DNA of 64,000 nucleotides, taken from positions 217 through 64,216 of the forward strand of contig JACREU010000091.1 in NCBI GenBank assembly GCA_016212705.1, in the 5' to 3' direction. The notes under the pieces are model-generated. The model was not told where the DNA came from, searched no databases, and was given only the letters and a program-made list of their open reading frames with translations. Position 1 is the stretch's first letter. Each line of letters begins with the position of its first letter. The stretch comes from Deltaproteobacteria bacterium. Its GTDB lineage: Bacteria > Desulfobacterota > GWC2-55-46. Shown here in pieces: positions 6,154-64,000 of the stretch. The position numbers and the translations under genes are program-made.

Positions 6154-6157
6154 GTTT

Positions 6158-7783
6158 GTGATAAGGCCCTGTAAAATCATACCCGCCCTTGTTGTCGTTG
6201 CCGCGGTCTTCGCGGTCTACGCGCAGACGCTTCAAAACGGCTTCGTCTACGACGACAACCACATCATACTCGCCAACGAGTGGATAAGGGACCTTGCGCG
6301 CATCCCGGATATACTCACGTCTTCGACCATATTCGCGGACCCGGCGCGCTCCGCCTCAAACACATACAGGCCGCTCCTCTTCCTCGTATTCATGGCCGAG
6401 CAATTCGTATTCGGGCTTGAGTCCCCCTGGGGCTTTCACCTCGTGAACGTCTCCTTGCTTGCGCTTAACGGCTGTCTCCTTTACGGGATAGCATCGATGC
6501 TGTTTGCGAAGGATGAGGAGGGACATGCCTCCGGTTACGGGTTTTTGCCTCCGCTCCTCGCCTCTCTTGTCTTTACGCTCCATACGATAAATTCAGAGGC
6601 CGCCAACTGGGCGTCCGCCCAGGCGGAGCTCCTTTTTACGGCCCTCTTCCTCGCCGCCTTCTGGATATATACGAAAGGCGGGAGAGAGGCGGTTGGGAGG
6701 GTAGCCGTTTCCGTTCTTGTCTATTTCTTAGCCCTCCTTGTCAAGGAGACTGCGATAATACTCCCGGCGCTCCTCTTCGCCTTCGACCTCATCCATGACG
6801 GCAGAAGGATATTCAAGAGGGCGTTCAATTACGCGATATTCTTCGGCGCGGCGGTAGTGTATATGGCCATAAGGACTTACGCCGTCGGCGGCGTCATCCA
6901 GCACAGGCAGGCGCCGTTAACCGGCGTAGAGCTCGTGATAAATATATTCCCGCTCGTCTTTCAATACGCCTGGAAGCTCGTCTACCCGACGGGCTTATCA
7001 GCGCTCTACGAGCTCCATGCGATAAAGTCGTTTGACCTGAACGCCGCGGCGGGCATCGCGGTGACAGCGGCCTTTGTCGCGGCGTTCGTCGTATTCAGGA
7101 GAAGGCGCGCGGTCTTCCTCGGGCTCATCATGATGGGGCTCCCGTTGCTCCCCGTGCTCTACATCCCCGCGTTGTCCACGTCCGCCTCAGCCGACAGGTA
7201 CATGTACCTGCCGACCGCCGGGTTCGGCATCATCGTCGGCTGTATAGTTGAGGCTGTCTTCAGGGGGAAGCTAAAGGCCGCTTTTTCCGTAGCTATTATC
7301 GCCGTCATGATAGCGGTCACTGCCGCTTACGCGTTTGCTTCCTTTGAAAGGGTTGCCGTATGGAGGGACGACTTCGCCCTCTGGTCGGATACCGTCAGGA
7401 AGTCGCCGGGGAGCAGGTACGCGCATTATAACCTCGCGCTCGCGTACCAGGACAGGGGCGATCTTGATAACGCCATAGTAGAGTTCAAGGCGGCGATAAA
7501 GGCCGCCCCCGGCTACGAGGACGCCCACTACAATCTCGCGTGGTGCTACCAGTCAAAAGGTGATAGCATTAACGCGGCCGTCCACTACAGGGAGGTCCTG
7601 AGGCTCGATCCAGGCTCCGCGGACGCGCACTACAACCTCGGGCTCATATACAGGGGTGAATCGTTTTTTGATGAGGCGGCTTTCGAGTTCAGGGAGGCGC
7701 TCCGGCTGAAACCCGGCTATGCCGAGGCAACAGGGGCCCTTGCGGAGATTCCAGGGGCCATTGGAGGGGTTACTGCGCGATGA
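6158..7783 (+). CDS. GT-C type membrane glycosyltransferase (PMT_2/TMTC-like) with C-terminal TPR repeats, paralogue 2
   Basis: LQNGFVYDDNHII, YRPLLFL, WGFHLVNV and LLVKETA motifs. C-terminal TPRs (AHYNLALAYQDRGD...). Confidence 0.7.
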   Translation: MIRPCKIIPALVVVAAVFAVYAQTLQNGFVYDDNHIILANEWIRDLARIPDILTSSTIFADPARSASNTYRPLLFLVFMAEQFVFGLESPWGFHLVNVSLLALNGCLLYGIASMLFAKDEEGHASGYGFLPPLLASLVFTLHTINSEAANWASAQAELLFTALFLAAFWIYTKGGREAVGRVAVSVLVYFLALLVKETAIILPALLFAFDLIHDGRRIFKRAFNYAIFFGAAVVYMAIRTYAVGGVIQHRQAPLTGVELVINIFPLVFQYAWKLVYPTGLSALYELHAIKSFDLNAAAGIAVTAAFVAAFVVFRRRRAVFLGLIMMGLPLLPVLYIPALSTSASADRYMYLPTAGFGIIVGCIVEAVFRGKLKAAFSVAIIAVMIAVTAAYAFASFERVAVWRDDFALWSDTVRKSPGSRYAHYNLALAYQDRGDLDNAIVEFKAAIKAAPGYEDAHYNLAWCYQSKGDSINAAVHYREVLRLDPGSADAHYNLGLIYRGESFFDEAAFEFREALRLKPGYAEATGALAEIPGAIGGVTAR

Positions 7784-8526
7784 AGAACGGCAAGGTGCTC
7801 TCCGTCATAATGCCTTCGTACAACGAGGGCGCGCACATCCGGAAGAACGTCGTTGAAACATGGGAGACGCTCGAGAAGGTCTGGGGCGATTCTTTCGAGA
7901 TAATAGTAGTCGACGACGGGAGCTCTGACAATACCCACGCGGAGGCACTGGCCGCTTCAAATATGCGCTCGCGCGTAAAGGTCGTCCATTACGCTGATAA
8001 CCGCGGCAAGGGCGGGGCGCTGAAGGAGGGGTTCAGGAACGCGGCTGGAGACTATATTGCCTTCCTGGACGCGGACCTCGACCTCCACCCCTCTCAGATA
8101 CCGGCGCTATTCAAGGTGATGGAGGAAAGCGGGGCCCAGGTAGTGATAGGGTCCAAGCACCACCCCTCTTCCGCCCTCAAGTACCCCGTGCGCCGGAGGA
8201 TAATTAGCAGGGTATACGCAACAGCTCTGAAGTTCCTCTTCAAGCTCCCCGTCCGGGACACGCAGACCGGGATCAAGATATTCAAGGCCGAGGTGCTTAA
8301 AAGGATATTCCCGAGGGTCGTCTGCGCGAGGTACGCCTACGACCTCGAGATACTCGCAAACGCGCACCGTCTCGGCTACACGATAGCCGAGACGCCGATA
8401 GTCCTTAACTTCCAGAGGGTCGCAAAATGGGGGAGGATAAGGACGAGAGACCTCTACCTCGCGGGAATGGACACGCTCGCCATATTTTACAGGATGTACT
8501 TTACTCGGCACTACAAGGGGATCTGA
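7780..8526 (+). CDS. family 2 glycosyltransferase, polyprenyl-phosphate mannose/glucose synthase-like (DPM1/GtrB-like, soluble form)
   Basis: SVIMPSYNEG...IIVVDDGSSDNT...FLDADLD (GT2 DxD). 248 aa with no C-terminal TM segments. Start overlaps the upstream stop (ATGA). Confidence 0.75.
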   Translation: MKNGKVLSVIMPSYNEGAHIRKNVVETWETLEKVWGDSFEIIVVDDGSSDNTHAEALAASNMRSRVKVVHYADNRGKGGALKEGFRNAAGDYIAFLDADLDLHPSQIPALFKVMEESGAQVVIGSKHHPSSALKYPVRRRIISRVYATALKFLFKLPVRDTQTGIKIFKAEVLKRIFPRVVCARYAYDLEILANAHRLGYTIAETPIVLNFQRVAKWGRIRTRDLYLAGMDTLAIFYRMYFTRHYKGI

Positions 8527-8532
8527 CGCGCC

Positions 8533-10281
8533 ATGCGCTCTGAAAGGGGGCTTAGACTGTTCTTTATCGCGATAGCCGCGCTCGTCTCATTCGCGGTCTA
8601 CGCTAACACCCTTGGGAACGGGTTCGTCTACGACGACCACCTGCAGATAGAGAAGAACGTCTGGCTCGTGTCCTTCTCCAGCATACCCGATATACTCACA
8701 AGCCATGTCTACGGTTTCAAGCAGGAGATCAAGGTAACGGGCTCATACAGGCCGCTATTCATGCTCGTCTATCTCTTCGAATACGCCGCATTCGGAATGA
8801 AACCCTGGGGCTGGCACCTCGTGAACGTCTCCCTCCACGCCGTTTCCGTTATAATGGTATTTCTCATAGCCGATACCCTGACAAGAGGACGACGCGCAGA
8901 GGCCGGGGCGCCGCAGGTAAGGCTCGTAGCCCCGTTCATAGCCTCTCTCCTCTTCGCCGTTCACCCGGCGCACAACGAGCCGGTGGCGTGGGTCGCCTGC
9001 GTCCCGGACCTCTCGTACACGGCGCTCTACCTCGTTGCGTTATATATTTCCATAAGGTCTACGCGCGCCTTAGCCGTTGTACCGGCGATCATTTATCTCA
9101 TCGCCCTCCTTTTTAAAGAGACGGCTGTTACGCTCCCCCTTGCGGTATTCGCCTGCGACAGGCTCATTGCCGAAGAAAAGACGGACAGCCTCAGGCGTTA
9201 CCTCCCATTCGTTGCGGCGCTCGCATTATATCTGGCCTTCCGGCGCTTGTTCCTCGGCGGCCTCGCGGGCGCGCCCTCGATGCACCCGTATATGGACGCG
9301 GGCATGACAGTCATAAACGCCGTCATATTCTTTGCCGGATATCTCCGCGCGCTCGTCTTCCCTTATTGGTTCGAGCCCTTCAGAGTATTCGCCCCGGCTG
9401 TCTCGATGGCGGATCCGAGGTTCATATCCGGCGCGCTCGCCGTATCAGCCGTCATAGCGGCGGTCATATACTGCCGTAAAAGGCACCCGCTCTCGGCGTT
9501 CTCACTTATCTTTTTTTCGATCGCCATACTCCCAGCGCTCTACATACCGGGCCTCAGCCAGAACCCGTTCGCCGAGAGGCAGGCCTATCTGCCCTCTGCC
9601 GGGCTCGCGATAGGGGCTGCGGCAGTTTCGTCCCGAATGATCGGTGAGAGGGTTTCGCGCGCAGTCCTCGCGCTCGCGCTCCTTCTCGTGATTACATCCG
9701 TCCTCTCATACGCCGCTATAACTCGTAACTTCGCCTGGAAAGACGACCTCTCCATCTGGACCGCCTCGGCGGTCTCTCAGGAAGGCAATTATCTCGCCTC
9801 GCACAATATCGCCGTTGAGCGCGTGATAGCAGGGGAAGCCGGCTCCGCCATATTCGATTACAGGGAATCGATACGGATGAACAAGGAGAGAGTATTCCCG
9901 GATGAAAAGACCCTTGTGCTGTCGAACCTGTATCTCGGAAAGATATACGCGGGCAAGGGCCTGCAGAGGGAGGCTGTTGCAAGGTTTAAGGAGGCCTTAC
10001 GGCTCAAGCCTGACCTCCCGGAGGCCCGTTTAGACCTCGCGCGCGCGCTGGAGGCGTCCGGCGACCCCGCGGGGGCGGTTATCGAATACAACAGGGCGCT
10101 CGGTCTGCCCTGGAGGAGGGAGGACCTCAAGGCCATATACAGGGACCTCGGCAGGACGCTTGCCGGACTCGGCATGCATGATGACGCGCTTCTGAGCCTC
10201 GAAGAGGCCCTGAAGCTCGACCCCGACGACGCGGATACGGCAAGGGACCTCGCGCTCGCAAGGAGGTTGTCCGGGAGATGA
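8533..10281 (+). CDS. GT-C type membrane glycosyltransferase (PMT_2/TMTC-like) with C-terminal TPR repeats, paralogue 3
   Basis: LGNGFVYDDHLQI, YRPLFML, WGWHLVNV and LLFKETA motifs. TPR-like C-terminus. Confidence 0.7.
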   Translation: MRSERGLRLFFIAIAALVSFAVYANTLGNGFVYDDHLQIEKNVWLVSFSSIPDILTSHVYGFKQEIKVTGSYRPLFMLVYLFEYAAFGMKPWGWHLVNVSLHAVSVIMVFLIADTLTRGRRAEAGAPQVRLVAPFIASLLFAVHPAHNEPVAWVACVPDLSYTALYLVALYISIRSTRALAVVPAIIYLIALLFKETAVTLPLAVFACDRLIAEEKTDSLRRYLPFVAALALYLAFRRLFLGGLAGAPSMHPYMDAGMTVINAVIFFAGYLRALVFPYWFEPFRVFAPAVSMADPRFISGALAVSAVIAAVIYCRKRHPLSAFSLIFFSIAILPALYIPGLSQNPFAERQAYLPSAGLAIGAAAVSSRMIGERVSRAVLALALLLVITSVLSYAAITRNFAWKDDLSIWTASAVSQEGNYLASHNIAVERVIAGEAGSAIFDYRESIRMNKERVFPDEKTLVLSNLYLGKIYAGKGLQREAVARFKEALRLKPDLPEARLDLARALEASGDPAGAVIEYNRALGLPWRREDLKAIYRDLGRTLAGLGMHDDALLSLEEALKLDPDDADTARDLALARRLSGR

Positions 10282-12008
10282 ACGGAAGGCTTAAACTCCT
10301 CCTTTTCGCGCTCGCCCTCGTAGCGGCCTCTTTTGCCGTTTACCACGCCACACTCTGGAACTCCTTCGTCTACGACGACGCGGAGCAGGTATTGAGGAAC
10401 CGCTGGATCACGGATTCGGGGTATTTAAAGGAGATATTCACCTCCCACACGTTCGGCTTCTCGGAATCCAGCTACCAGGCTATCTCCTACAGGCCTCTCT
10501 TCCTGGCCTTCTATATGGCCGAGTACGCCGTCTTCGGCCTTGAGCCGTGGGGGTGGCACCTTGTGAACATAATCCTCCACTCGGCAAACGCCGTAATCGC
10601 GTTCCTTCTCATAAGGCGGCTCATCGGAGCGGATGAGGAAGGGGCGTCCTTCGCCGCCTTTGCCGGAGCCCTCGTATTCACGGTCCTTCCGGCGGGGAGC
10701 GAGGTGGTCTCGTGGGTCGGGTGCGTCCCTGAGCTCTTATATACCTTTCTCTGTCTCGTTTCTTTTTATGTATACGCGGGGGCCGGCAAGGGGGTCGTAA
10801 GGGTCGTCGTTTCGGTTTTCTTTTATTTCATCGCGGCCTTCACGAAGGAGACCGCCATAATATTCCCGTTCTTTTTTTACGTGTATGATTCGCTCCGCGA
10901 GGGTTGGGTCCCTGGTCTCTCCCGCGTAAAAAGGTACGTCCCTTTTGCGGCGGCGGCAGTTGCCTACATCGGCATAAAATCCGCGCTACTCGGCCACATA
11001 GCCGCGCCCGTTCGGATACACACGGACCTTAAAGCGGCGGACTTCCTCGCAAGCGCCCCGTATCTTTTCGTTGAGTACCTGAGGGCGCTCGTATTCCCCG
11101 AGGGCGTCTACCCCCTTCAGCCCTTTGCGCCGATACCCTTCTTCGGCGCGGAGTTCATACTCTCGGCCCTGGGCATCGTTGCGCTCTCAGCCTTCTGTTT
11201 TTACTTTCGAAAGAGGTTCGGCAGGTTAACCCTCCTCGCCTTCGCGATATTAGTCGTGCCGCTTCTGCCGGCGCTCTACGCCCCGGCCATAAGCAGGACC
11301 CCTTTTGCCGAGAGATACCTGTATCTCCCGTCCGTCGGGTTAGCGCTCCTTATAGCCCTTGCCTTCCAAAGGGGCCTGCTCTATTCGGCTGTCTGGCGGA
11401 AAGCGCTTATTATCGCGCTCGCCGTCGTCTCGGCCTTTTACTCCGTCTGGTCGTACAAAAAGTCCCTCAACTGGAGGGATGACAGGGCCCTGTGGGAAGC
11501 ATCGCTCAAGGGGGGGCCGGGAAACCATCTCGCGCTGCATTCGCTGGGGTACATCGATTTCAAGGAGGGCAGGGACATTGAGGCGATAGAGAAGTTATCG
11601 CAGGCGCTTAAATACAACCTTGAGGGGATCCACCCTGACCCGACGATGGTCCTCCTTACGAGGAAGGTTCTCGCCAACGCGTACCAGAGGGGAGGCTTGA
11701 GTGACCGTGCGGTAATTGAGTACGAGGAGGTCTTAAGGTACGAGCCCGAGGACCCTGTCGCAGGCTTCAACCTTGGGACTATATACGAGGGGATGGGCCG
11801 CCCCGGCGACGCGATAGAACTCTATGAAAAGGCGCTTTACTTCGCGAAAAGGCCGGAGCTTCTGAGGGAGATTATCTTAAGGCTCGGAGAAGGTTATGCA
11901 AGGACCGGGCGCGCAACTGAGGCGCGTGCCTTATATGAGAGGGGCGCGGAGGCGTTCCCCGGAGACCCCGAGTTCCGGCAAAGGGCCCGCGCCCTCCCCG
12001 CGCGTTAG
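10278..12008 (+). CDS. GT-C type membrane glycosyltransferase (PMT_2/TMTC-like) with C-terminal TPR repeats, paralogue 4
   Basis: LWNSFVYDDAEQV, YRPLFLA, WGWHLVNI and AFTKETA motifs. TPR-like C-terminus. 4-nt overlap with paralogue 3. Confidence 0.7.
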   Translation: MNGRLKLLLFALALVAASFAVYHATLWNSFVYDDAEQVLRNRWITDSGYLKEIFTSHTFGFSESSYQAISYRPLFLAFYMAEYAVFGLEPWGWHLVNIILHSANAVIAFLLIRRLIGADEEGASFAAFAGALVFTVLPAGSEVVSWVGCVPELLYTFLCLVSFYVYAGAGKGVVRVVVSVFFYFIAAFTKETAIIFPFFFYVYDSLREGWVPGLSRVKRYVPFAAAAVAYIGIKSALLGHIAAPVRIHTDLKAADFLASAPYLFVEYLRALVFPEGVYPLQPFAPIPFFGAEFILSALGIVALSAFCFYFRKRFGRLTLLAFAILVVPLLPALYAPAISRTPFAERYLYLPSVGLALLIALAFQRGLLYSAVWRKALIIALAVVSAFYSVWSYKKSLNWRDDRALWEASLKGGPGNHLALHSLGYIDFKEGRDIEAIEKLSQALKYNLEGIHPDPTMVLLTRKVLANAYQRGGLSDRAVIEYEEVLRYEPEDPVAGFNLGTIYEGMGRPGDAIELYEKALYFAKRPELLREIILRLGEGYARTGRATEARALYERGAEAFPGDPEFRQRARALPAR

Positions 12009-12132
12009 TGGATAAACCGCTTTCTTGTTGTAATCCGCCATATTATGATATAATCAGCGTGCCGGGACTGGGTTGGGGGCGCGAGGCTCAAAGGCGCTGA
12101 ATTGTGAAAAAACACGTCGAGGGAATATCTTC

Positions 12133-12954
12133 ATGGCTTCTGAAAGAACAGACTCTAATCCGATGAGCTCAACCCGCGAAAAGCTGGCCCACATGTTCTC
12201 CAAGGTCATGGCAGGGACGGTCACGAGGGAAGAGGGGACGATGCTCCTCAACCACCTCGTAAAGGAGGACCATGCAGGTACGGTAAAGGAGCTCGCCTAT
12301 CTTATCGACTACCCGCCCCCTGGCGTTTTCCCCAAGACCATACTCCACACCATAGCGCTTTCGAGGAACAAGGCCTTCTACAACATAATGGTAGGGAGCC
12401 TCGAGCACAAGAACGAGGAGGTCTCGATACTCGCGGCCCAGGAGCTCGCCAGGCTCAAGACCTCGGACGCGAAGGTCGTGCTCGTCGAACACCTGAACAG
12501 CGAGGTATACCACGTAAGAAAGGCTTCAGCGATAGCGCTCGTAGATGGGTTGACCGACGGGATTGATATCGTCAGAAGACACCTCATGGACCAGGCAGAG
12601 CCTTTTTACAGATCCACTTCCGCGCTGGCGCTCCTTACAGGCGGCAGGAAGGGTATGGAGGCGCTCCTCGCCATTCTCAATTCCGGCGAGCCGGGCCCCG
12701 TGTCCACGGCCGCTGAGGCGGTAATGGGGGCGTCTTCCAGGCTTGACGCGGGAGACATACCAAAGGTCTTCGAGGCGTTGATGCTCGCCGGCGACAGGAA
12801 GGACTCAAGGACGATTATAGAGCTTCTGAAGGTGGCGACGGCGCTCGGAGGCAGGGCGAGGGGGTTCGATGGCTATGTGCAGGCCTTCATCGACTACCCG
12901 TTCGACGCGGTGAGGAACGAAGCCGTGGACGCGCTCCGTGTGATCAGGGCTTGA
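12133..12954 (+). CDS. HEAT/PBS-lyase-like repeat protein
   Basis: Repeated approx. 30-aa helical units (SILAAQELARLK..., VRKASAIALVD..., VRNEAVDALRV). Start chosen at the ATG at 12133 rather than the 12073 extension. Confidence 0.5.
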   Translation: MASERTDSNPMSSTREKLAHMFSKVMAGTVTREEGTMLLNHLVKEDHAGTVKELAYLIDYPPPGVFPKTILHTIALSRNKAFYNIMVGSLEHKNEEVSILAAQELARLKTSDAKVVLVEHLNSEVYHVRKASAIALVDGLTDGIDIVRRHLMDQAEPFYRSTSALALLTGGRKGMEALLAILNSGEPGPVSTAAEAVMGASSRLDAGDIPKVFEALMLAGDRKDSRTIIELLKVATALGGRARGFDGYVQAFIDYPFDAVRNEAVDALRVIRA

Positions 12955-18432: not shown

Positions 18433-19425
18433 TTATTTTTTGTCATTCGCGCACCGGAACCCGAAGTTGTTGTTCTTCGTGGTCGGGTGGAAGAATATCC
18501 TGTTGTAGTTCGGGGAGCTTATCCCGCACTTGTACGTGGTGCAGTCGTACCAGGAGCCGCCCTTCAACACCTTGTACTTTTCCCCGTAGTTCTCGTCGGG
18601 GTGGGTGTTCCCGGGGTAGGGTTTGAACCAGCTGTCCGTCCACTCGAATGCGTTGCCGGCCATGTCGTAGAGGCCGTAAGGGCTCTTGCCGCTCTCGAAG
18701 GACCCGATCGGTAGCGTGTCCTCGTGCCCGTACTGCGGCGTGTTACCCTTTTCCTTGGCGAACTTGTCGCCCCAGGGGAATGTCCTCTTGTCAACGCCTC
18801 TGGCGGCCTTTTCCCATTCCTCCTCGGAGGGAAGGCGCTTGCCCTCCCATCTGCAGAAGTTGTCCGCGTCCTTCCATGTCACATATACGACAGGGTGGTC
18901 CTTCTTGCCCTCCGGAATATTCCCGTCCTTCCAGTGGTCCGGGGCAGGGTAGCCTGCGGCGTCGACGAAGGCCTTATAGCGCGCATTTGTTACCTCGTAT
19001 CTGTCGATGTAGAAGGCCCCGACCATCCTTGAATGCTCCGGCTGGCTCTTGGGCCACCATTCATTCGACCCCATGGTGAACTCCCCGGCAGGGATGAGCA
19101 CCATCCCCTTTGGGGCGGCCCCCTTTACCGCGCCCTTGCCGGAAGCAACGGCAAGGGTCTCGGCGTACCTGTCTATTTCATTCCGCTCCGAGGGGTCCCT
19201 GAACCTCCCGTTTATCTCCACATAGTTGTCGCTTAAGCCCGGGCCGTGGCACTCCGCGCAGGTCTCGTCCCTGGTGTAGTCCGTCGAGTACCGCCTGTCC
19301 GGCGTGTGGCAGTCCATGCACTTGGGCTCGCCTGTGGCCGGGTCGTAGTCGCTCGCCGCGCCGTAAGCGGACGTTGCGAGCGCGCAGAGGGAGACGGCAA
19401 CGGCTGATAAGAGTAGTCTTTTCAT
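18433..19425 (-). CDS. diheme c-type cytochrome fused to an FGE-sulfatase domain
   Basis: Signal peptide. Two CxxCH motifs (CMDCH, CAECH) in the N-terminal 60 aa. FGE-domain motifs follow: RLPSEEEWEKAARG, WTDSWFKPYP, LKGGSW, then C-TTYK-C (Cx4C) and GFRCAN. Confidence 0.75.
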   Translation of the reverse strand: MKRLLLSAVAVSLCALATSAYGAASDYDPATGEPKCMDCHTPDRRYSTDYTRDETCAECHGPGLSDNYVEINGRFRDPSERNEIDRYAETLAVASGKGAVKGAAPKGMVLIPAGEFTMGSNEWWPKSQPEHSRMVGAFYIDRYEVTNARYKAFVDAAGYPAPDHWKDGNIPEGKKDHPVVYVTWKDADNFCRWEGKRLPSEEEWEKAARGVDKRTFPWGDKFAKEKGNTPQYGHEDTLPIGSFESGKSPYGLYDMAGNAFEWTDSWFKPYPGNTHPDENYGEKYKVLKGGSWYDCTTYKCGISSPNYNRIFFHPTTKNNNFGFRCANDKK

Positions 19426-19453: not shown

Positions 19454-19903
19454 TTATTTCGGGGCGGCCTTGCCCTCGCGTTCGAGCTGTCTTATGAACG
19501 CGAGCACGTCCCATCTCTCTTTTTCGGACAATATCTCCTGCCACCTCGGCATGGACATCGACTCTCCGCCGACCTCTTTGTGTATCCCCTCTGTTATGGA
19601 TTTAAAGAGCTCGGCGTCGGTCTTCGACATCCTCTTCGCGTCGTTTACGAAATCAGCCGGGTGAGGTGAGAGGGCTATGCCCACTGGCCCGTCGCCCATG
19701 CCCTTTTGCCCGTGGCAGAAGTGGCAGTACCTGAAGTATATATCCCTGCCCGCCGTTGCTTCGCCGGCTCCTGCCTGCATGGCCTGAGCCGCGGCCGGCG
19801 GCTTTTCAGGCTGAGGGGGGCTCTTTTTCTCGCCGGTGCATCCGGATACGGAAAGAAGCGCCGCAAGGGAGGCGGCTATGGTTATCGCGAGCGGCTTCTG
19901 CAT
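19454..19903 (-). CDS. monoheme class I c-type cytochrome lipoprotein
   Basis: Lipobox LSVSGC. Single CHFCH motif with a distal Met candidate (SMSMP). 149 aa. Confidence 0.75.
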   Translation of the reverse strand: MQKPLAITIAASLAALLSVSGCTGEKKSPPQPEKPPAAAQAMQAGAGEATAGRDIYFRYCHFCHGQKGMGDGPVGIALSPHPADFVNDAKRMSKTDAELFKSITEGIHKEVGGESMSMPRWQEILSEKERWDVLAFIRQLEREGKAAPK

Positions 19904-21404: not shown

Positions 21405-22295
21405 TTACTTCTGGTGGCAGGTTCTGCAGAGACCAGAACCGGTGTTGCCGCCGACCCTTCTAAGGAACAGGCCGTTGGACTCAGCTTCCTGGTCCGCGGT
21501 CACGTTCGAGTAGGTGGAGTCGATTTCCTGCCAAGACTTGTTGTTGAAGTGCGGATCGTGGCAGCTGGAGCACTCAACCTTGGAGGACCTGAGGAGGTCG
21601 GCGATCGTCGCCGAGTTGGAGACGAAGCCCTTTACCGCCCAGAGGTTCTTGGTGAGGTTGCCGTTGTCGTAGGTCGCGGCAGAGGTGTTGAGCTCAGAGG
21701 TAAGGTCGATACCGCTGATGGTTACGTTGGTGGCCCTCAGACCAGCGGCCGTCCCGGCGGCATAGGTCACGGAAACCGGGTGGTCGTTGGAGAGGTTAAG
21801 GCCGATGTTCAACCTGCTGGAGGTCATGAAGTCGGAGACGACTGACCCGAAGTCATAGAAGGTGTAGCCACGGTCCGAACCGCCGTTGACGACGCCGGAC
21901 TTACCAGGGGCGTTGACAATGTTGTCGAAGGTGGTTACGCCGTCATGGCATGAAAGACAGGCAAGCGAAGTCGAGCCGATGTCGGTGTTGAGGATCGAGG
22001 TACCCGCGATCGTCGAGCCATAGGCCGTGAAGGATGTCGGAGCGGAGGTGCCCCTGTTCCACATCGGCTTAAGGTTGTTGGCGGTGTTGGTGTGGTGAGG
22101 CGTGTGACAGAATACGCAGACTTCGGTCGTGCCCTGGGCGCCGATGTGCATCGAGAAGCCGCCGAGGTTGTGCCTGGAAGACGCGATGCCTGACGCGGCG
22201 TCGCCGTTGGCGTAGGTGTCAACTGCTGAAGCTGTACCGGCGGTGATGAAACCGATTGAGGCGACCGCTACTGCGATTGCGAGAAACCTTTTCAT
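21405..22295 (-). CDS. secreted tetraheme c-type cytochrome (doubled-CXXCH family)
   Basis: Sec signal (TASA/VD). Four CxxCH motifs: CVFCHTPHH, CLSCH, CSSCHDPH, CRTCH. SRHNL precedes heme 1 as in paired-CXXCH proteins. Gly/Ser/Thr/Asn-rich. Good RBS (AAAGGAG). Confidence 0.85.
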   Translation of the reverse strand: MKRFLAIAVAVASIGFITAGTASAVDTYANGDAASGIASSRHNLGGFSMHIGAQGTTEVCVFCHTPHHTNTANNLKPMWNRGTSAPTSFTAYGSTIAGTSILNTDIGSTSLACLSCHDGVTTFDNIVNAPGKSGVVNGGSDRGYTFYDFGSVVSDFMTSSRLNIGLNLSNDHPVSVTYAAGTAAGLRATNVTISGIDLTSELNTSAATYDNGNLTKNLWAVKGFVSNSATIADLLRSSKVECSSCHDPHFNNKSWQEIDSTYSNVTADQEAESNGLFLRRVGGNTGSGLCRTCHQK

Positions 22296-57649: not shown

Positions 57650-57785
57650 TCCTTTGCCCGTTAATGTTTTTTGCGTTTGACCAGGCGGCCTTCGCGGGCC
57701 TTCGCGGGTCTTTATTTACTTGAGACCGTTTTTCGCGGGAGAGCGCCCGGCGGCCAGCCGAAAAAATAGAAAAGGAGAAGAAGGA

Positions 57786-58067
57786 ATGACGAAGAAGATA
57801 GGTCTTTTTGGCATGGTATTGGCCCTCCTGCTTTTCGTGTCAGGCTGCGGACAGCAGTTGAAGCAGGAAAACGAGCAGTTAAAGGGGCAGGTGGCTACGC
57901 TGACAGAGGAGGGGAACGGCTTGAAGGGCCAGGTCGCCTCGTTACAGAAAGAGGCAGAGGACTTGAAAGCCCAGGTTGAGACCCTCTCCGCCGAGAGAGA
58001 CGCCCTAAAGAAGGAGCTTGAGGCGAAGTCCAAGCCCGCCCCCAAGGCCAAGAAGAAAAAGAGATAA
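57786..58067 (+). CDS. small coiled-coil lipoprotein (Lpp-like architecture)
   Basis: The ATG at 57786 is preceded by AAGGAGAAGAAGG. Lipobox LFVSGC. Heptad-like QLKQENEQLKGQVATL... repeats and a Lys-rich tail. Confidence 0.55.
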   Translation: MTKKIGLFGMVLALLLFVSGCGQQLKQENEQLKGQVATLTEEGNGLKGQVASLQKEAEDLKAQVETLSAERDALKKELEAKSKPAPKAKKKKR

Positions 58068-58088
58068 GGCGTTAAACGTTTTTTTCAG

Positions 58089-58122
58089 GGCCCGCCGGGG
58101 GTATCCGGCGGGCCTTTTTTTT
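58089..58122 (+). terminator. Rho-independent terminator
   Basis: GGCCCGCCGG-GGGTAT-CCGGCGGGCC followed by T8. Confidence 0.85.
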
Positions 58123-58229: not shown

Positions 58230-58258
58230 TTGACACCAGGGGGAGGTTTTAATAGAAT
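58230..58258 (+). promoter_or_regulatory. sigma70-type promoter upstream of the MCP gene (~270-nt leader)
   Basis: TTGACA-N17-TAGAAT. Confidence 0.5.
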
Positions 58259-58531: not shown

Positions 58532-60724
58532 ATGTTCCGTCAAGGCCTCAAATCAAAGATATTGAACCTGACCATAGGGTTGTCGCTTCTCGGCTTCGGC
58601 GTCCTCGTTTTTATCGTCATCAAGGAGGAGGAGAAGAGCCTGCTGCGCGAGAGGATGAAGGCGAGCGAGCTCATGGCCCAGCCTATCCTGCATACCATAT
58701 ACAAGGACATGCTCGACGAGAGGGCGGATATGCCCCGTTTCCTTATCGAGGGCTTGAAGACCATAAAGGGTGTCGAGAGGGTACAGCTCATAAGGGCGAA
58801 CGGCGTCGAGGAGGCGTTCAAGGACTATAAGACCTTGAACGCCGTAAAGGTCGAGTTCGGCGAGATAAAGCCCGAGTGGGTCGTAGACCACCCGAACATA
58901 CTCAATAACGTGGCGCTCGGCACGCAGAACCAGGATTTCAAGAAGGCCCTTCTGGACTTCAACAAGGGGGCGAAAGAGGCGGTCTCCTATATAGAGAAGG
59001 AAGGCGAGAGGTCCCTCTTTACCTACCTCGTGCCGATAGTGGCAAAGCCGAAGTGTTCGTCGTGCCACTCGCAGGAGGAGGCCGCGCGCGGCGTCCTCAT
59101 GATATCGACCTCGCTCGACGAGATGTACGAACTGCTGAAGAGCTCGCGTAACAGGTGGATTATTTACGGGGTAATGACGGTCGCGGCTACGACCGTGCTA
59201 CTCGGCCTCCTCGTTACGGGTGTCGTCACCAAGCCTGTCGACAGGGCCGTCGGCATGCTGAAGGCCATAGCCGAGGGCAAGGGCGATTTGACGCAGAGGC
59301 TCGATATCTCGTCGAACGACGAGATGGGCATGCTCGGCAGGTGGTTCAACAAGTTCGTCGAAGGCATGCAGCACATGGTCAAGGAGATATTCGGGATCTC
59401 GCGCGAGGTCTCCGTCGCGTCGTCCGAGATCGAGGCCTCGTCAAGGGAGATAGTCGGGGCCGTCGCCAAACAGCTCCGCGCCGCCGAGGATACCTCGGTT
59501 TCCATCAAGGAGATGGACGCATCGATAAAGACCGTAGCCGAGGAGGCCGAGGCCCTTAACCTCTCGGCGATGGAGGTCTCGACTTCCGCTCACGCGATGT
59601 CTTCATCCGTCGACGAGGTGCGGGTCAACATAGAGAAGCTCTTTTACTCGGCCTCGTCCACGACCTCGTCGATCAACGAGATGGCGATATCCATAAACCA
59701 GGTCGCCTCGCACGTCGACGAGCTCTTCAAGAGGACCGAGGAGGTCGTCTCTTCCATCATCGAGATAGGCTCGCGCGTAAAGGACGTCGAGAACTACTCG
59801 CGCAGGCAGGCCGAGCTCGCCGAGAAGGTCCGCTCCGACGCCGAGGACATAGGCATGGCCGCGGTCGTAAAGACGCGCGAGGGCATAGAGAAGGTAAGCG
59901 AGGAGGTCGCCTCGACCGGCATAGTGATAAACAGGCTCGGCGAGCGCTCCAAGGAGATAGGAAAGATCCTGACCGTCATAAACGAGATAGCCGACAACAC
60001 GCACCTCCTTGCCCTTAACGCGACTATACTCGCGGCCCAGGCCGGGGAGCACGGCAAGGGGTTCGCCGTCGTCGCGCGCCAGGTCAAGGACCTCGCCACC
60101 AAGACGACGTTATCCACCAAGGAGATAGCCGGGCTCATAAGCCAGGTCCAGGGCGAGGTATCCGTGGCGGTAGAATCGATGCAGAGGTCTTCGGAAAAGG
60201 TCGAGGACGGGGTCAGGTTATCACGGGACGCGCAGGACGCGCTCAAGATGATACTGGATTCGGCCAGAGGCTCCTTCGAGATGGCGAAGATGATAGAGAG
60301 GACGACGATAGAGCAGACCAAGGGCGCGGTCCAGATAACTAACGCCGCGCAGATAATAAGCCACATGGTCGGCGACATAAAGAACGCGGCGAACGAGCAG
60401 TCCTCGGCGGCGCGCGAGATATTGAAGGACACCGTCCAGATGAAGGAGTTCATGGAGAGGGTGAAGCACTCGACTATCGAGCAGTCGAGGGAGGGCAGGC
60501 ACGTCTCGGAATCCATCTTCAAGGTCGCGGACAGGATAAAGAAGGTGGCGTCCGCTACGTCCGCGCAGATGGAGTTCTCGAGGAGGATAGTCGCGGCTGT
60601 GGAGACGGTCAAGCAGGCGGCCGAGGACAACGCGGCGCTCGCTTCCCGGCTCGATAAGACGGTAAAAGAGATGAACAGGCAGGCCGAGGCGCTCCGGTCC
60701 ACCGTCGGGAGCTTCAAGGCGTAA
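58532..60724 (+). CDS. methyl-accepting chemotaxis protein with a periplasmic c-type-heme (DUF3365/Tll0287-like) sensor domain and HAMP
   Basis: Two TM segments flank a ~170-aa periplasmic region ending in YLVPIVAKPKCSSCHS...GVLMISTS. HAMP follows. Long MCP signalling hairpin (LLALNATILAAQAGEHGKGFAVVA). Confidence 0.8.
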   Translation: MFRQGLKSKILNLTIGLSLLGFGVLVFIVIKEEEKSLLRERMKASELMAQPILHTIYKDMLDERADMPRFLIEGLKTIKGVERVQLIRANGVEEAFKDYKTLNAVKVEFGEIKPEWVVDHPNILNNVALGTQNQDFKKALLDFNKGAKEAVSYIEKEGERSLFTYLVPIVAKPKCSSCHSQEEAARGVLMISTSLDEMYELLKSSRNRWIIYGVMTVAATTVLLGLLVTGVVTKPVDRAVGMLKAIAEGKGDLTQRLDISSNDEMGMLGRWFNKFVEGMQHMVKEIFGISREVSVASSEIEASSREIVGAVAKQLRAAEDTSVSIKEMDASIKTVAEEAEALNLSAMEVSTSAHAMSSSVDEVRVNIEKLFYSASSTTSSINEMAISINQVASHVDELFKRTEEVVSSIIEIGSRVKDVENYSRRQAELAEKVRSDAEDIGMAAVVKTREGIEKVSEEVASTGIVINRLGERSKEIGKILTVINEIADNTHLLALNATILAAQAGEHGKGFAVVARQVKDLATKTTLSTKEIAGLISQVQGEVSVAVESMQRSSEKVEDGVRLSRDAQDALKMILDSARGSFEMAKMIERTTIEQTKGAVQITNAAQIISHMVGDIKNAANEQSSAAREILKDTVQMKEFMERVKHSTIEQSREGRHVSESIFKVADRIKKVASATSAQMEFSRRIVAAVETVKQAAEDNAALASRLDKTVKEMNRQAEALRSTVGSFKA

Positions 60725-60840: not shown

Positions 60841-61839
60841 ATGAGGACAAACGCAGTTGCCGTTGCGATTCTGTTGATGATTGTTTTTCTGGCTGTGCCC
60901 GCCAAAGGCGCCCTTGGCGCCGACTGGACAAAAGCCGTTGCGGCGGACGTTACGCTCTTCTACCCTGGCGTCGCCTCGTGGGAGTTTCTTAACAGCGACG
61001 ACCACAGGCTCGGCGGCAGGGAGATAAAACAGGTGAGAAAGGACTGCAGGCACTGCCACCTGTCCAAGGGCGGCGAGCTGGATCTGAAGGCAGACGAGAT
61101 CGCCGCAGGGTCCATTAAGATGAAGAGGTCGCATAACCCGTTCGAGCCGGAGCCGCTTCCCGGTAAAAAAGGGATCATGTCGGCCAAGGCGCAGGCCGCT
61201 TACGACGACGAGTTCCTTTACATAAAGGTCGAGTGGGAATCCAGGGGCGCGGGCTGGTCAAAGGGCGCGAAAAAATCGGACAGGGTCTCCCTCCAGATAA
61301 ACAAGGCCGAGCCGACCTTCAAAAAATACGGCTGTTTCATAACCTGCCACAACGACCTGAACACGATGCCCGAGTCCCCTTCCAAGAAAGAGGTCTCCGC
61401 CAACCCGTACTACGGCGGACAGCAGAGGGACGACGTCCGCCTCTACGCCTATTACGCGAGGTCGGCCTGGGACCAGAGGAGGCCGGAAGGGGAGCTGTCG
61501 AAGAAGCTCAAGGACGGCGGCAGGATAGACCTCGTCTCAGTCGAGTTCGAAAACGGCTCAGCTACGGCGTTCGACGGCTGGATTTTCGACGACAGGCGCT
61601 GGGAGGATAAGGCCGGGAACGCCACGGGCGCTTACTCCAAAGGAAAGTACTCCGCCGAGTTCAAGCTTAAATTAAAGTCAAAGGACCAGTTCGACGCCGA
61701 CCTCTTTGAGGGCGACGTCGTCTCCATAGGCATGGCAGTCCACGACGACGGCGCATCGAAGAGAAAACACTACGTATCTTTCCCGTTCACGATAGGGCTC
61801 GGGGTCGCCGCGGACATAAAGGCCGAAAAGACAAAGTAA
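60841..61839 (+). CDS. periplasmic heme protein, EB_dh/DOMON-like (ethylbenzene-dehydrogenase gamma-like) domain with an extra CxxCH
   Basis: Signal peptide. CRHCH motif. AAYDDEFLYIKVEWES...DRVSLQI...YGCFITCHNDLNTMP fits my recollection of the EB_dh heme-binding domain. Good RBS (AGGAGG). Confidence 0.5.
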   Translation: MRTNAVAVAILLMIVFLAVPAKGALGADWTKAVAADVTLFYPGVASWEFLNSDDHRLGGREIKQVRKDCRHCHLSKGGELDLKADEIAAGSIKMKRSHNPFEPEPLPGKKGIMSAKAQAAYDDEFLYIKVEWESRGAGWSKGAKKSDRVSLQINKAEPTFKKYGCFITCHNDLNTMPESPSKKEVSANPYYGGQQRDDVRLYAYYARSAWDQRRPEGELSKKLKDGGRIDLVSVEFENGSATAFDGWIFDDRRWEDKAGNATGAYSKGKYSAEFKLKLKSKDQFDADLFEGDVVSIGMAVHDDGASKRKHYVSFPFTIGLGVAADIKAEKTK

Positions 61840-61848
61840 GGAGGCTGG

Positions 61849-63021
61849 ATGAGAGCCTTTTCAAGACGCGCTTTCAAGATGGCCGCCAACTGCGCTGTCC
61901 CCGTCGTATTCTGCACGATATTCTTATCCGTCATTTTTTCCCCGTCGCTCTCGGAGGCCTATCCGTTCTTCTCAAGGCAGGTCGGCAGGGACTGCACCTT
62001 CTGCCACTCCGTATTCCCGAAGCTGAACGAGACGGGCAGGATGTTCCGCTCCGGCGGATACAGGCTCTCAGCCGAAGCCGAGTGGAAGGAAGTAAAGGAC
62101 TTAAGCGCCATCCCGGCCGCTATCGAAGTCGAGGTAGAGGCCGCGTACAACGACCTCAACGCCAACGGCGCGAATGTTAAATCATCCGACCTTAAGATCG
62201 AGGAGATAGAGCTCTTCGCCGGCGGCGCGTTCGGAAAGACCGGGAGGGTCTCGGTCAATACCGCCATCACCTTCGAGGATACCGAGGCAGGGGCCGACGT
62301 CTCCATAAGGAAGGCGTTCCTTCAGGTGAACGACCTCGTAGGGCCGACAGGCGAGGGGATGCTTAACTTCCGGGCCGGGAAGTGGGACATAGGGTTGCCG
62401 TTTGTGAATACCATCGCCCCGATCTCGAACCGCTATCTCGCCGAATCCGCGCTTGGCGTACTCTCCATAGAAAATAAGGCATTGGAGCTTAACGGTACGC
62501 TCACTTCTGAAGGCGAGACGCTAATTGTCACGCACCGCTGGGCCGTTGGGGCGTCACAGGAGGACGTTCTGAGCGACGACAAGCTAAAGGGCGGCTACGC
62601 CCTGTATTCGGTAACCTTTCAGGAGGATTACAGCCTGGGCGCGCTCGTGAGGACCGGCGAGGAGGCAACAAACGGCGTGGACGCATCCTACACGAGGTAC
62701 GGGCTCGCGGCAGAGGCCGAGTTGGGGCCGACTATACTTACTTTAGGATACTTCAGGGCGGACTCCGGTGCGGACGCCGACGACTTTCTCGTTGAGGCCC
62801 TATGGCTGCCCCGCGCGAAGGTGAAGCTCGGGGTCCGCTACGAGTATCTGAGGGAAGACGAGAGTCAAGGGGTTTCGTCACAGACCTTGATGGCCCGATA
62901 TAATATACTCAGCAATGCGTATGTACAGGCGGAATGCAGGTTGCTATCCGACGAGGACCATGTGACTTCAATTAACGAGGACGAGACGAAGCTCCGCGCC
63001 TTTCTCGTCGCGGTATTCTAA
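61849..63021 (+). CDS. fused monoheme cytochrome-porin candidate (Cyc2-like outer-membrane beta-barrel)
   Basis: Signal peptide (SLSEA/YP). Single N-terminal heme motif in YPFFSRQVGRDCTFCHSVFPKLNETGRMFRSGGYR. About 330 aa of amphipathic beta-strand pattern follow, ending ...AFLVAVF. Confidence 0.55.
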   Translation: MRAFSRRAFKMAANCAVPVVFCTIFLSVIFSPSLSEAYPFFSRQVGRDCTFCHSVFPKLNETGRMFRSGGYRLSAEAEWKEVKDLSAIPAAIEVEVEAAYNDLNANGANVKSSDLKIEEIELFAGGAFGKTGRVSVNTAITFEDTEAGADVSIRKAFLQVNDLVGPTGEGMLNFRAGKWDIGLPFVNTIAPISNRYLAESALGVLSIENKALELNGTLTSEGETLIVTHRWAVGASQEDVLSDDKLKGGYALYSVTFQEDYSLGALVRTGEEATNGVDASYTRYGLAAEAELGPTILTLGYFRADSGADADDFLVEALWLPRAKVKLGVRYEYLREDESQGVSSQTLMARYNILSNAYVQAECRLLSDEDHVTSINEDETKLRAFLVAVF

Positions 63022-63033
63022 AGAGCTTAATAT

Positions 63034-63609
63034 ATGGGCGCAAAAGATGAAATAGAACTGCTGGACTCGAAGATCGCCCGGCTCAAGGTCGAGTACGAGC
63101 AGTATTTCATGCGGGTCTTGAAGAGAGAGCCCGCGAAGCTCCGCGACGAGGTCGACAGGCTCGTCCTGTTTTACAGCAACAAGAACCTCACCAACACGTC
63201 CCTCAGGTTCAAGTACAACACCATCGTCGCCAAATACAACTCATACAAGCAGTATTGGACGAGGACGCTCCGCGCCATAGAAGAAGGCGATTTTTACAGG
63301 AAGGCCGAGGGCGAGCTTGATACGGGCGCGCGCACGGCGAGCGCGCATCGGGAGGCCCGGAGTGCGCCAACAGAGGCCGCCCCGGCCGCCGGCAATGACG
63401 TAAGGGAGATATACGAAAAATACATCGAGGCGAGAAAGGCCTGCAACGAGCCGATTGAGGGCATAACGCTCGGCACGCTTGAAAAGACCCTGCAGGAGTA
63501 CAAGAAGAAGGTGGAGGCGCAGTACAACACGCAGGACGTGGAATTTAAGGTGGCCATAAGGGACGGCAAAGCGAAGCTCACGATCGCGCCGAAGAAGAAG
63601 GCGGGGTAG
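63034..63609 (+). CDS. hypothetical cytoplasmic protein (coiled-coil N-terminus, low-complexity linker, conserved C-terminal domain)
   Basis: 191 aa with no signal peptide. The C-terminal VREIYEKYIEARKACNE...DVEFKVAIRDGKAKLTIAPK resembles a deltaproteobacterial MXAN_5187-type C-terminal domain (weak recollection). Confidence 0.4.
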   Translation: MGAKDEIELLDSKIARLKVEYEQYFMRVLKREPAKLRDEVDRLVLFYSNKNLTNTSLRFKYNTIVAKYNSYKQYWTRTLRAIEEGDFYRKAEGELDTGARTASAHREARSAPTEAAPAAGNDVREIYEKYIEARKACNEPIEGITLGTLEKTLQEYKKKVEAQYNTQDVEFKVAIRDGKAKLTIAPKKKAG

Positions 63610-63616
63610 GATTTTT

Positions 63617-63640
63617 TGTAGGGTGGGCTCCGCCCACCAA
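63617..63640. repeat. REP hairpin GTAGGGTGGGC-TCC-GCCCACC next to the RAYT gene
   Basis: 7-bp stem GGTGGGC/GCCCACC (63622-63638) preceded by GTAG, a classic REP-type sequence. Confidence 0.6.
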
Positions 63641-63671: not shown

Positions 63672-64000
63672 ATGTCCAATTACATAAGGTCGAGAGGCCC
63701 GAGCGTCTTTTTTTTTACCGTCGTAACGCACATGCGTCAACCTATTCTTTGCCTGGACGATTCGGTTAGCGCATTAGAAGACTCGATAGTGGAGGTGCGG
63801 AAGGAAAGGCCCTTTGAGACCAAGGCACTGGTCGTTTTGCCGGACCACATGCATTGCATATGGGAGCTTCCCGAAGGCGACACGGATTATTCCGTCAGAT
63901 GGGCGTTGATAAAAATTGGTTTCACGAAGAGGATGAAAGGGCGGCTCAAAACTCCTCAGTCGAGTCTTTCGCGGACAAGGCACAGGGAGGCCGCTGTCTG
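63672..64000 (+). mobile_element. REP-associated tyrosine transposase (RAYT, IS200/IS605 Y1 HUH family), 3' end outside window
   Basis: Own translation: MSNYIRSRGPSVFFFTVVTHMRQPIL...ALVVLPDHMHCIWELPEGDTDYSVRWALIKIGFTK... It has the HUH motif (HMH) and the typical RAYT N-terminus. The ORF stays open to nt 64000, so it is absent from the ORF track. Confidence 0.8.

Follow-up and report, generated by a model that had tools for sequence, protein, structure and literature searches.

The DNA analysed here, hereafter called the window, is a stretch of 64,000 nucleotides on contig JACREU010000091.1 of an uncultured 'Deltaproteobacteria bacterium' metagenome-assembled genome (MAG). It contains a cluster of four genes on the + strand: a gene for a methyl-accepting chemotaxis protein (MCP; 58532-60724, 730 aa), gene 1 encoding an EB_dh-fold protein (60841-61839, 332 aa), gene 2 encoding a Cyc2-type cytochrome-porin (61849-63021, 390 aa) and gene 3 encoding a small cytoplasmic protein (63034-63609, 191 aa). 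Three of the products carry c-haem motifs. One is predicted for the outer membrane and one for the periplasm, and the third, a receptor in the inner membrane, is predicted to have its motif facing the periplasm; all three are encoded and inherited together. A first-pass annotation, made from the sequence alone, had given the spacing of genes 1 to 3 as 9 and 12 bp, and the coordinates of the open reading frames (ORFs) agree exactly. Searches for the three genes returned 79, 215 and 264 homolog matches, the last number for gene 3. With tens to hundreds of homologs each, they are real genes rather than chance ORFs.

A promoter-like site, TTGACA-17-TAGAAT (58230-58258, +), is located upstream of the MCP gene; it agrees with the consensus at 11 of 12 positions and is a consensus match only. 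On its 5' side, a strong terminator-like hairpin (58087-58116) closes the preceding small lipoprotein gene. A scan of the intergenic DNA of the window revealed no strong terminator between the MCP gene, gene 1, gene 2 and gene 3. Furthermore, a GC-rich hairpin with a weak T-tail, GGTGGGC-TCC-GCCCACC (63622-63638, +), lies 13 bp past the gene 3 stop codon and can tentatively be regarded as a possible end of the transcription unit. The promoter-like site before the MCP gene, the missing internal terminator and the hairpin after gene 3 support the view that the four genes form one unit.

The four gene products

According to Keffer et al. 2021 (PMC8406198), a Cyc2 protein has a signal peptide, a single CXXCH and a 16-strand porin and is no shorter than 365 aa. 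Their motifs are AXPXFAR[Q/K][T/Y], with five residues between R and CXXCH, and PXL four residues past CXXCH; the consensus varies between clusters (PMC8406198). The first-pass annotation had assigned to gene 2 the architecture of Cyc2 and Cyt572, with a signal peptide, a haem motif early in the mature protein and an aromatic C-terminal residue, and all of this was confirmed. The signal peptide was judged by inspection from basic residues, a hydrophobic stretch and a likely cleavage site between SEA and Y. The AlphaFold2 model shows a helix at residues 16-29, and all homologs share the signal-peptide layout. The haem motif CTFCH (residues 49-53) follows the cleavage site after about 12 residues and is the sole CXXCH of the protein, which with 390 aa exceeds the Cyc2 minimum of 365 aa and ends in ...VAVF.

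The signature of gene 2, AYPFFSRQVGRDCTFCHSVFPKL (61957-62025, +), was compared in register with that of Keffer et al. 2021. It reads A-Y-P-F-F-S-R-Q-V-GRD-CTFCH-SVF-PKL and is in exact register with the published signature. Two deviations were found, V or I for T/Y throughout the family and S for A in the window protein only, and a strict regular-expression filter for Cyc2 would reject gene 2 because of them. An alignment of 64 homologs gave the family consensus PxFARQV...CTYCH...PKLN and revealed P39, F41, R43, C49, C52, H53, L59, G63, G70 and R72 as invariant. The PXL motif is present as H53-SVF-P57-K-L59, with P57 being nearly invariant. The haem domain (61957-62115, residues 37-89) contains no Met or His besides H53 that is conserved among these homologs; therefore, the distal ligand is either absent or supplied by the barrel.

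The same 64-sequence alignment was used for the AlphaFold2 model, in which the predicted barrel indeed appeared as 16 long strands (62116-63015, +) with a predicted local distance difference test score (pLDDT) of 84 and a predicted template modelling score (pTM) of 0.79. A Foldseek search with this model returned 16-strand porins including OprP (2o4v) and OprO (4rjw), and these two porins are the templates reported for Cyc2 from strain PV-1 (PMC8406198). At the sequence level, a search of the PDB gave only weak OmpU matches, no curated Pfam or NCBIfam family was found for gene 2, with Porin_4 remaining below cutoff, and a database protein 100% identical to gene 2 is annotated as hypothetical. 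A profile search matched 4,030 representative clusters at E ≤ 1e-3 and only 52 at E ≤ 1e-30, which places gene 2 in a tight clade within a very large superfamily. The distant matches include a member from 'Ca. Mariimomonas ferrooxydans'. Two homologs drawn from a plasmid collection served as surrogates for reference Cyc2 proteins: a Ralstonia megaplasmid ORF, in which the published signature is reproduced exactly (ANPLFARQTGLNCASCHTIYPEL), scored 49 bits, and an Ideonella 'cytochrome C' (L056), with the gene for a dihaem c cytochrome downstream of its own, scored 40 bits. Ralstonia is listed among the genera carrying Cyc2 homologs (Keffer et al.; PMC8406198). A low identity of gene 2 is to be expected because authentic Cyc2 proteins share only about 17-23% identity across clusters.

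Thus, gene 2 has in common with Cyc2 of Acidithiobacillus ferrooxidans, Cyc2 PV-1 of Mariprofundus and Cyt572 of Leptospirillum the signal peptide, the N-terminal CXXCH, the signature spacing and an OprP/OprO-like 16-strand barrel, but it is short, carries V/I for T/Y and forms a tight clade of its own. As judged from its sequence and model, it is a divergent member of the Cyc2-type cytochrome-porin superfamily.

Gene 1 had been described as EB_dh-like, and the Pfam domain EB_dh (PF09459; 61147-61779, +) was detected with E = 4e-20 and 73.3 bits as compared to a gathering cutoff of 33.3. The additional CRHCH site that had been reported is present at residues 69-73 (61045-61059). A second haem motif, CFITCH (CX3CH; residues 165-170, 61333-61350), is located within the EB_dh domain and inside the stretch YGCFITCHND that the first-pass annotation had cited. 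Among 49 homologs with 49-85% identity, C69, C72, H73, C165, C169, H170, H55, M176, H301 and H310 are invariant. The AlphaFold2 model (pLDDT 81.6) has its lowest confidence exactly at both haem motifs, as expected for a model built without cofactors. Its best Foldseek matches are NxrC (7b04_C) and EbdC (2ivf_C); a PDB sequence search with gene 1 returned only NxrC (E = 4e-4). NCBIfam gamma-subunit models did not match gene 1, and none of the gene 1 loci examined contains genes for molybdopterin alpha or FeS beta subunits.

The EB_dh domain and fold are shared by gene 1 with EbdC, NxrC, the gamma subunits of type II dimethyl sulfoxide (DMSO) reductases and archaeal FoxC. Subunits of the EbdC/NxrC type hold a non-covalent haem b and occur in molybdoenzymes or oxidase clusters, whereas gene 1 has an invariant CX3CH plus an extra CXXCH and no molybdoenzyme neighbours. 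FoxC is a precedent for an EbdC-like fold in an iron-oxidation cluster (PMC10654088). Gene 1 encodes a secreted protein that, to judge from its motifs, most likely binds two covalent haems.

The MCP is composed of a first transmembrane segment (TM1), a periplasmic haem-c sensor, a second transmembrane segment (TM2), a HAMP domain (E = 5e-11) and an MCPsignal domain (E = 4e-37). It had been noted before as a haem-sensing MCP preceding the operon. Its nature as an MCP was verified by the Pfam matches; the idea of a sensed haem had to be corrected, as the protein itself contains a c-haem motif, CSSCH (residues 175-179, 59054-59068, +), located in the periplasm between TM1 and TM2, and is part of the conserved unit. 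Weak Pfam matches of the sensor to Mcp40H-20_sensor and Tll0287-like remain below the gathering cutoffs, and the sensor is therefore assigned at superfamily level only. Alignment by phmmer with the sensor structures 3B47/3B42 of Geobacter GSU0582/GSU0935 extends across the haem site (3B47, E = 4.7e-4).

As an alignment of 15 orthologs shows, gene 3 has two domains, a conserved N-terminal one of about 105 aa and a C-terminal one, which are joined by a variable linker. The C-terminal domain (63394-63588, +) matches MXAN_5187_C_dom (NCBIfam NF041621, E = 3e-20), which is the sole family match. The protein had been described as cytoplasmic with a coiled coil and a conserved C-terminal domain. It contains neither a signal peptide nor a transmembrane segment and the domain is real, so that only the coiled coil was dropped; coiled-coil-like Pfam matches proved to be noise. 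The 264 homologs are about 190 aa long, and the best 120 of them include none from outside the clade. A sequence search of the PDB found no relative of gene 3, and a literature search found nothing on MXAN_5187. In most loci gene 3 is placed after gene 2, or after gene 1 where gene 2 is missing.

Conservation and variants of the gene cluster

Two scans were carried out to collect related loci, which are given below by their numbers. The scan for gene 2 covered 185,579 species-representative genomes and yielded 45 loci; the scan of metagenomes for gene 1 yielded 375 contigs, from which 78 loci were kept. Removal of redundancy at 97% and selection for a gene 1 ortholog of at least 41% identity resulted in a set of 43 non-redundant loci. 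In this set, a haem-c MCP is encoded directly upstream of the EB_dh gene in 38 of 40 scorable loci, and gene 2 follows gene 1 in 32 of 39. The pairing of genes 1 and 2 suggested by the first-pass annotation was also found in the synteny survey: among the 45 loci from the gene 2 scan, an EB_dh gene is located directly upstream of every gene 2 homolog with at least 41% identity for which upstream DNA is present.

The order MCP(730 aa)-EB_dh-gene 2-gene 3 occurs in L001 and L002, and the comparison of L002 with the window and L001 showed that the block recurs amid unrelated flanks. Identities to the window for MCP, gene 1, gene 2 and gene 3 are 100, 96, 92 and 88% in L010 and 84, 60, 55 and 56% in L001. 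The earlier proposal of a three-gene conduit operon beside an incidental MCP was therefore abandoned: the conserved unit is MCP-EB_dh-Cyc2-like-gene 3, and the MCP is the best conserved and most constant of the four members.

Several loci deviate from this order. The two scorable loci without an MCP are L019 and L033, which have a divergent sensor histidine kinase and an RR-HD-GYP response regulator in its place. A 79-aa stretch of the kinase's periplasmic domain, including the haem-motif region, is 34% identical to the MCP sensor (E = 1e-6). Gene 3 is replaced in L004, L005 and L030, where MCP-EB_dh-Cyc2-like is followed by DUF4388/PatA_N, CheY, CheA, an AAA ATPase and two CheW genes. The CheA-AAA ATPase-CheW part of L004 resembles the electrode-sensing cluster esnB-GSU2221-esnC of Geobacter, by composition only. 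The Che cluster of L004 (9590-15922) includes an ATPase of the AAA_22 type, and a gene for a phage-type integrase is located just upstream of the MCP gene. Other genes found at the gene 3 position encode a secreted protein of 262 aa without family match (L022:11159-11947) and a membrane-anchored tetrahaem cytochrome (L082:8230-8850).

Loci L057, L058 and L071-L076 contain MCP-EB_dh-gene 3 without gene 2 in the same trp...ATP synthase neighbourhood, the distance between the EB_dh gene and gene 3 being 17-118 bp. In a rough, midpoint-rooted neighbour-joining tree of gene 1, the loci without gene 2 nest within clades containing it; apparently, gene 2 was therefore lost secondarily. The same nesting in this rough tree led us to reject the possibility that absence of gene 2 is the ancestral state in the crown clade.

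In the deeper-branching loci L086-L090, the order is MCP-EB_dh(-EB_dh)-decahaem cytochrome-MtrB/PioB porin (Pfam E = 9e-115). Hence, the same receptor-carrier pair adjoins an unrelated type of conduit. The idea that the EB_dh protein is specific to the Cyc2-like porin was rejected, since it accompanies the MCP in loci that lack gene 2 and is found beside conduits of the MtrAB type in others. The MCP of L086 (487-2595), encoded upstream of EB_dh-decahaem, lacks a CXXCH in its N-terminal domain, unlike all others; if the module works in this case, the signal may pass by protein docking and not by haem-to-haem transfer. In the window cluster itself, a Pfam and haem-motif scan detected neither a decahaem cytochrome nor a 26-strand MtrB/PioB porin. 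Moreover, in about 40 loci of the window clade the cluster is devoid of genes for a quinol dehydrogenase, a bc1 complex or a terminal oxidase.

More distant relatives of gene 1, with 28-40% identity, keep both haem motifs and are found in electron-transfer neighbourhoods, such as NapC/NirT-EB_dh-decahaem-MtrB/PioB in L133. The best argument for regarding the gene 1 family as a periplasmic electron-transfer module comes from these contexts, and the family is predicted to link outer-membrane conduits or periplasmic enzymes with inner-membrane haem proteins. From such gene orders, dihaem proteins with an EB_dh fold seem to be a general accessory of Mtr/Pio-type conduits, one that has apparently not been described before. 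Two tandem EB_dh-decahaem-MtrB/PioB triplets without an MCP are present in each of L096 (1396-9962) and L103 (4763-10384). Furthermore, L121, L125, L130 and L131 encode single fusions of about 585 aa (e.g. L125:5203-6960) in which a NapC/NirT tetrahaem quinol dehydrogenase is joined to a CXXCH and an EB_dh domain with CX3CH. These fusions adjoin a cytochrome cd1 nitrite reductase and have a TorC-like layout with an EB_dh-fold terminal domain. They probably explain why gene 1 homologs carry 'NapC' names at the Joint Genome Institute (JGI).

None of the distant relatives of gene 2 (at most 34% identity) is paired with EB_dh; their partners are a class-I cytochrome c (L006) or CCP_MauG (L008), and others have no obvious partner. 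L006 contains two tandem units (4779-7924 and 9515-12180), each encoding a class-I cytochrome c, a Cyc2-like protein that is 34% identical to gene 2, and a product of about 300 aa without annotation, and L007 has such units as well; a stand-alone response regulator follows the first unit of L006.

Possible function of the module

The four genes may constitute a chemosensory input module in which redox state is relayed from the outer-membrane conduit via the dihaem EB_dh protein to the haem of the receptor. On the basis of sequences and structural models, we give this proposal about an even chance of being correct. The Cyc2-like porin would exchange electrons with a redox-active species on the surface of the cell; given the Cyc2 precedent, Fe(II)/Fe(III) entering the pore is the most plausible one. 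The dihaem EB_dh protein would then carry the redox state across the periplasm to the receptor. There it could exchange electrons with the sensor haem, in either direction, or dock in a way that depends on its redox state. From the receptor, a Che-type pathway would lead to the control of motility or of some related behaviour, with gene 3 as a putative cytoplasmic accessory of the receptor. The relay is supported by the exchange of the receptor for a haem-sensor kinase and of the conduit for an MtrAB type, and also by the relationship of the MCP sensor to the solved haem-c MCP sensors of Geobacter.

Several observations weigh against this proposal. Its support comes throughout from sequence, models and synteny. 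The link to the outer membrane is not obligatory, since gene 2 was lost where MCP-EB_dh-gene 3 persists, and haem-to-haem transfer is not universal, as the MCP of L086 has no CXXCH. Furthermore, haem-c Cache sensors fused to signalling modules were recently reported to act as sensors of nitric oxide (NO) (PMC12889525), and distant gene 1 relatives occur in apparently respiratory clusters.

A different explanation, along the lines of the first-pass annotation, is an energy-conserving outer-membrane conduit. The Cyc2-like protein would oxidise Fe(II) or reduce an extracellular acceptor, the EB_dh protein would carry electrons to or from inner-membrane components encoded elsewhere, and the MCP would be co-located for joint expression of taxis and metabolism. 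Gene 2 indeed shares its architecture with the biochemically validated Fe(II) oxidases Cyc2 and Cyt572, gene 1 has distant relatives that belong to NapC/NirT-EB_dh-decahaem-MtrB/PioB clusters or form fusion proteins with NapC/NirT, a membrane-anchored tetrahaem cytochrome is encoded after gene 2 in L082, and other c-type cytochromes are present in the window 40 kb away. However, genes for a quinol dehydrogenase, bc1 complex or oxidase are absent from the cluster in about 40 loci of the clade. The MCP exceeds the proposed conduit in both constancy and conservation, gene 2 is dispensable, the substitute for the MCP is specifically a different signalling protein with a haem sensor, and a Che cluster lies directly downstream in L004. 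For these reasons a sensory role is favoured, and a conduit that conserves energy appears unlikely to us. In addition, the function of divergent Cyc2 homologs is regarded as uncertain in published work (PMC8406198). The outer-membrane cytochrome-porin and its periplasmic haem partner thus probably report the redox state outside the cell to motility rather than power respiration.

A further alternative is a sensor for a small ligand such as NO. In this case the haem-c Cache domain of the MCP would bind a diatomic gas, the EB_dh protein would keep the haem ferrous or scavenge the ligand, and the Cyc2-like porin would supply reductant or an entry route. The DUF3365/Tll0287 family has been reclassified as haem-c Cache domains in a 2026 preprint (PMC12889525), in which stand-alone members are reported to be of the redox type and a signalling-fused member to be NO-sensor-like, binding NO tightly without forming a stable O2 complex (PMC12889525). 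The MCP sensor belongs to this DUF3365/Tll0287/GSU0582 group, the NapC/NirT::EB_dh fusions adjoin the NO-producing cytochrome cd1 nitrite reductase, and some genomes keep MCP-EB_dh without the outer-membrane partner. Ligand sensing leaves the repeated recruitment of two unrelated conduits, Cyc2-type and MtrAB-type, unexplained, however; no NO-metabolising gene was found in the cluster of the clade, and the experimental NO data were obtained with a Pseudomonas protein from outside the window clade. We consider an NO sensor improbable. Chance adjacency of the four genes without any functional unit is hardly credible, because it is contradicted by the synteny, in which order and orientation are kept in tens of non-redundant loci at 41-96% identity with differing flanks, and by the informative replacements of the MCP by a kinase and of Cyc2 by MtrAB.

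The redox relay can be compared with several known systems. The usual partners of Cyc2 are Cyc1/c4-type cytochromes, whereas gene 2 is accompanied by the EB_dh dihaem protein and the MCP; among gene 2 relatives, those of L006 and of Ideonella (L056) have a class-I or a dihaem c cytochrome as partner. The Mto, Pio and Mtr systems combine outer-membrane MtoAB, PioAB or MtrAB with a periplasmic carrier (MtoD or PioC) and an inner-membrane protein of the NapC/NirT family (CymA or ImoA). The window unit shares this three-compartment logic, and gene 1 relatives occupy the carrier slot in NapC/NirT-EB_dh-decahaem-MtrB/PioB clusters. In the window, however, the outer part is monohaem and Cyc2-type, the carrier is an EB_dh protein and not a class-I cytochrome c or high-potential iron-sulfur protein (HiPIP), and the inner-membrane component is a chemoreceptor instead of a quinol dehydrogenase.

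The receptor resembles GSU0582 and GSU0935 of Geobacter sulfurreducens, members of the sCache_haem family (DUF3365/Tll0287), in that two transmembrane segments flank a periplasmic sensor containing a single CXXCH. For these sensors, no dedicated periplasmic cytochrome or outer-membrane partner is described in the literature examined. Congregation and energy taxis of Shewanella (MtrBC/OmcA, CymA, the MCP SO_2240, CheA-3) and the Esn network of Geobacter sense extracellular redox surfaces such as insoluble acceptors or electrodes, and this behaviour needs outer-membrane cytochromes together with MCP/Che proteins. There, the genes are dispersed and the link is thought to be indirect, via proton-motive-force, self-sensing or a cytoplasmic GAF domain; in the window, the joint encoding of conduit, carrier and receptor implies that the link is direct.

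Such a link would amount to a hard-wired sense across the envelope, leading from an outer-membrane conduit (Cyc2-type, or MtrAB-type in sister lineages) via EB_dh to the haem of a chemoreceptor or kinase and read by electron conduction rather than indirectly through metabolism. This broader idea is tentative, and we rate its chance as somewhat below even. If it is true, a cell would read extracellular redox potential or the availability of Fe(II)/Fe(III) directly by electron conduction. The question addressed is how bacteria find redox substrates that are insoluble or lie outside the cell, for example iron minerals and electrodes, and the module offers a directly testable candidate for a physical connection of conduit and receptor. 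It may also provide a physiological partner for haem-c Cache sensors, whose natural signal is still debated.

The first-pass annotation knew of no EB_dh partner described for Cyc2, and full-text literature searches likewise found no paper linking the two. They returned nothing that links Cyc2 with MCP synteny or EB_dh-type proteins with Mtr/Pio conduits; the sole co-mention of Cyc2 and EB_dh themes concerns archaeal FoxC with its EbdC-like fold (PMC10654088). The parts are thus of known kinds, and their conserved combination and the sensory wiring appear to be undescribed. The family of c-type cytochromes with an EB_dh fold is a recurrent, apparently undescribed periplasmic partner of two unrelated types of outer-membrane conduit and of NapC/NirT. 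Published Cyc2 trees include unnamed 'Deltaproteobacteria' sequences, so that members of the window clade may already be counted as putative iron oxidases. The module is a warning that, in MAGs of uncultured Desulfobacterota-type bacteria, Cyc2-like genes should not be taken to indicate lithotrophic oxidation of iron.

Neighbouring genes in the window

A small ORF of 78-119 aa is present just 5' of the MCP gene in several loci; these ORFs were grouped by position and size (window 57720-58067, +; L002:3988-4347; L057:5214-5450; L058:5186-5467; L059:3941-4216). The window ORF encodes a coiled-coil lipoprotein-like product, and a strong terminator separates it from the MCP gene.

Downstream of the cluster, an ORF (63672-64000, +) begins 63 bp past gene 3 and runs off the end of the window. 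It contains VVLPDHMHCIWELPEGD, and we take it to resemble REP-associated/IS200-like tyrosine transposases; the truncated product gave no Pfam match. In the 92%-identical locus L010, the DNA that separates gene 3 from the ATP synthase genes is free of ORFs of 90 aa or more.

The other c-type cytochrome genes of the window are located about 40 kb upstream of the cluster on the - strand. They encode a FGE-sulfatase-domain protein with two N-terminal CXXCH motifs (18433-19425), a monohaem class-I cytochrome c (19454-19903) and a tetrahaem cytochrome of the Paired_CXXCH/c7-like type (21405-22295).

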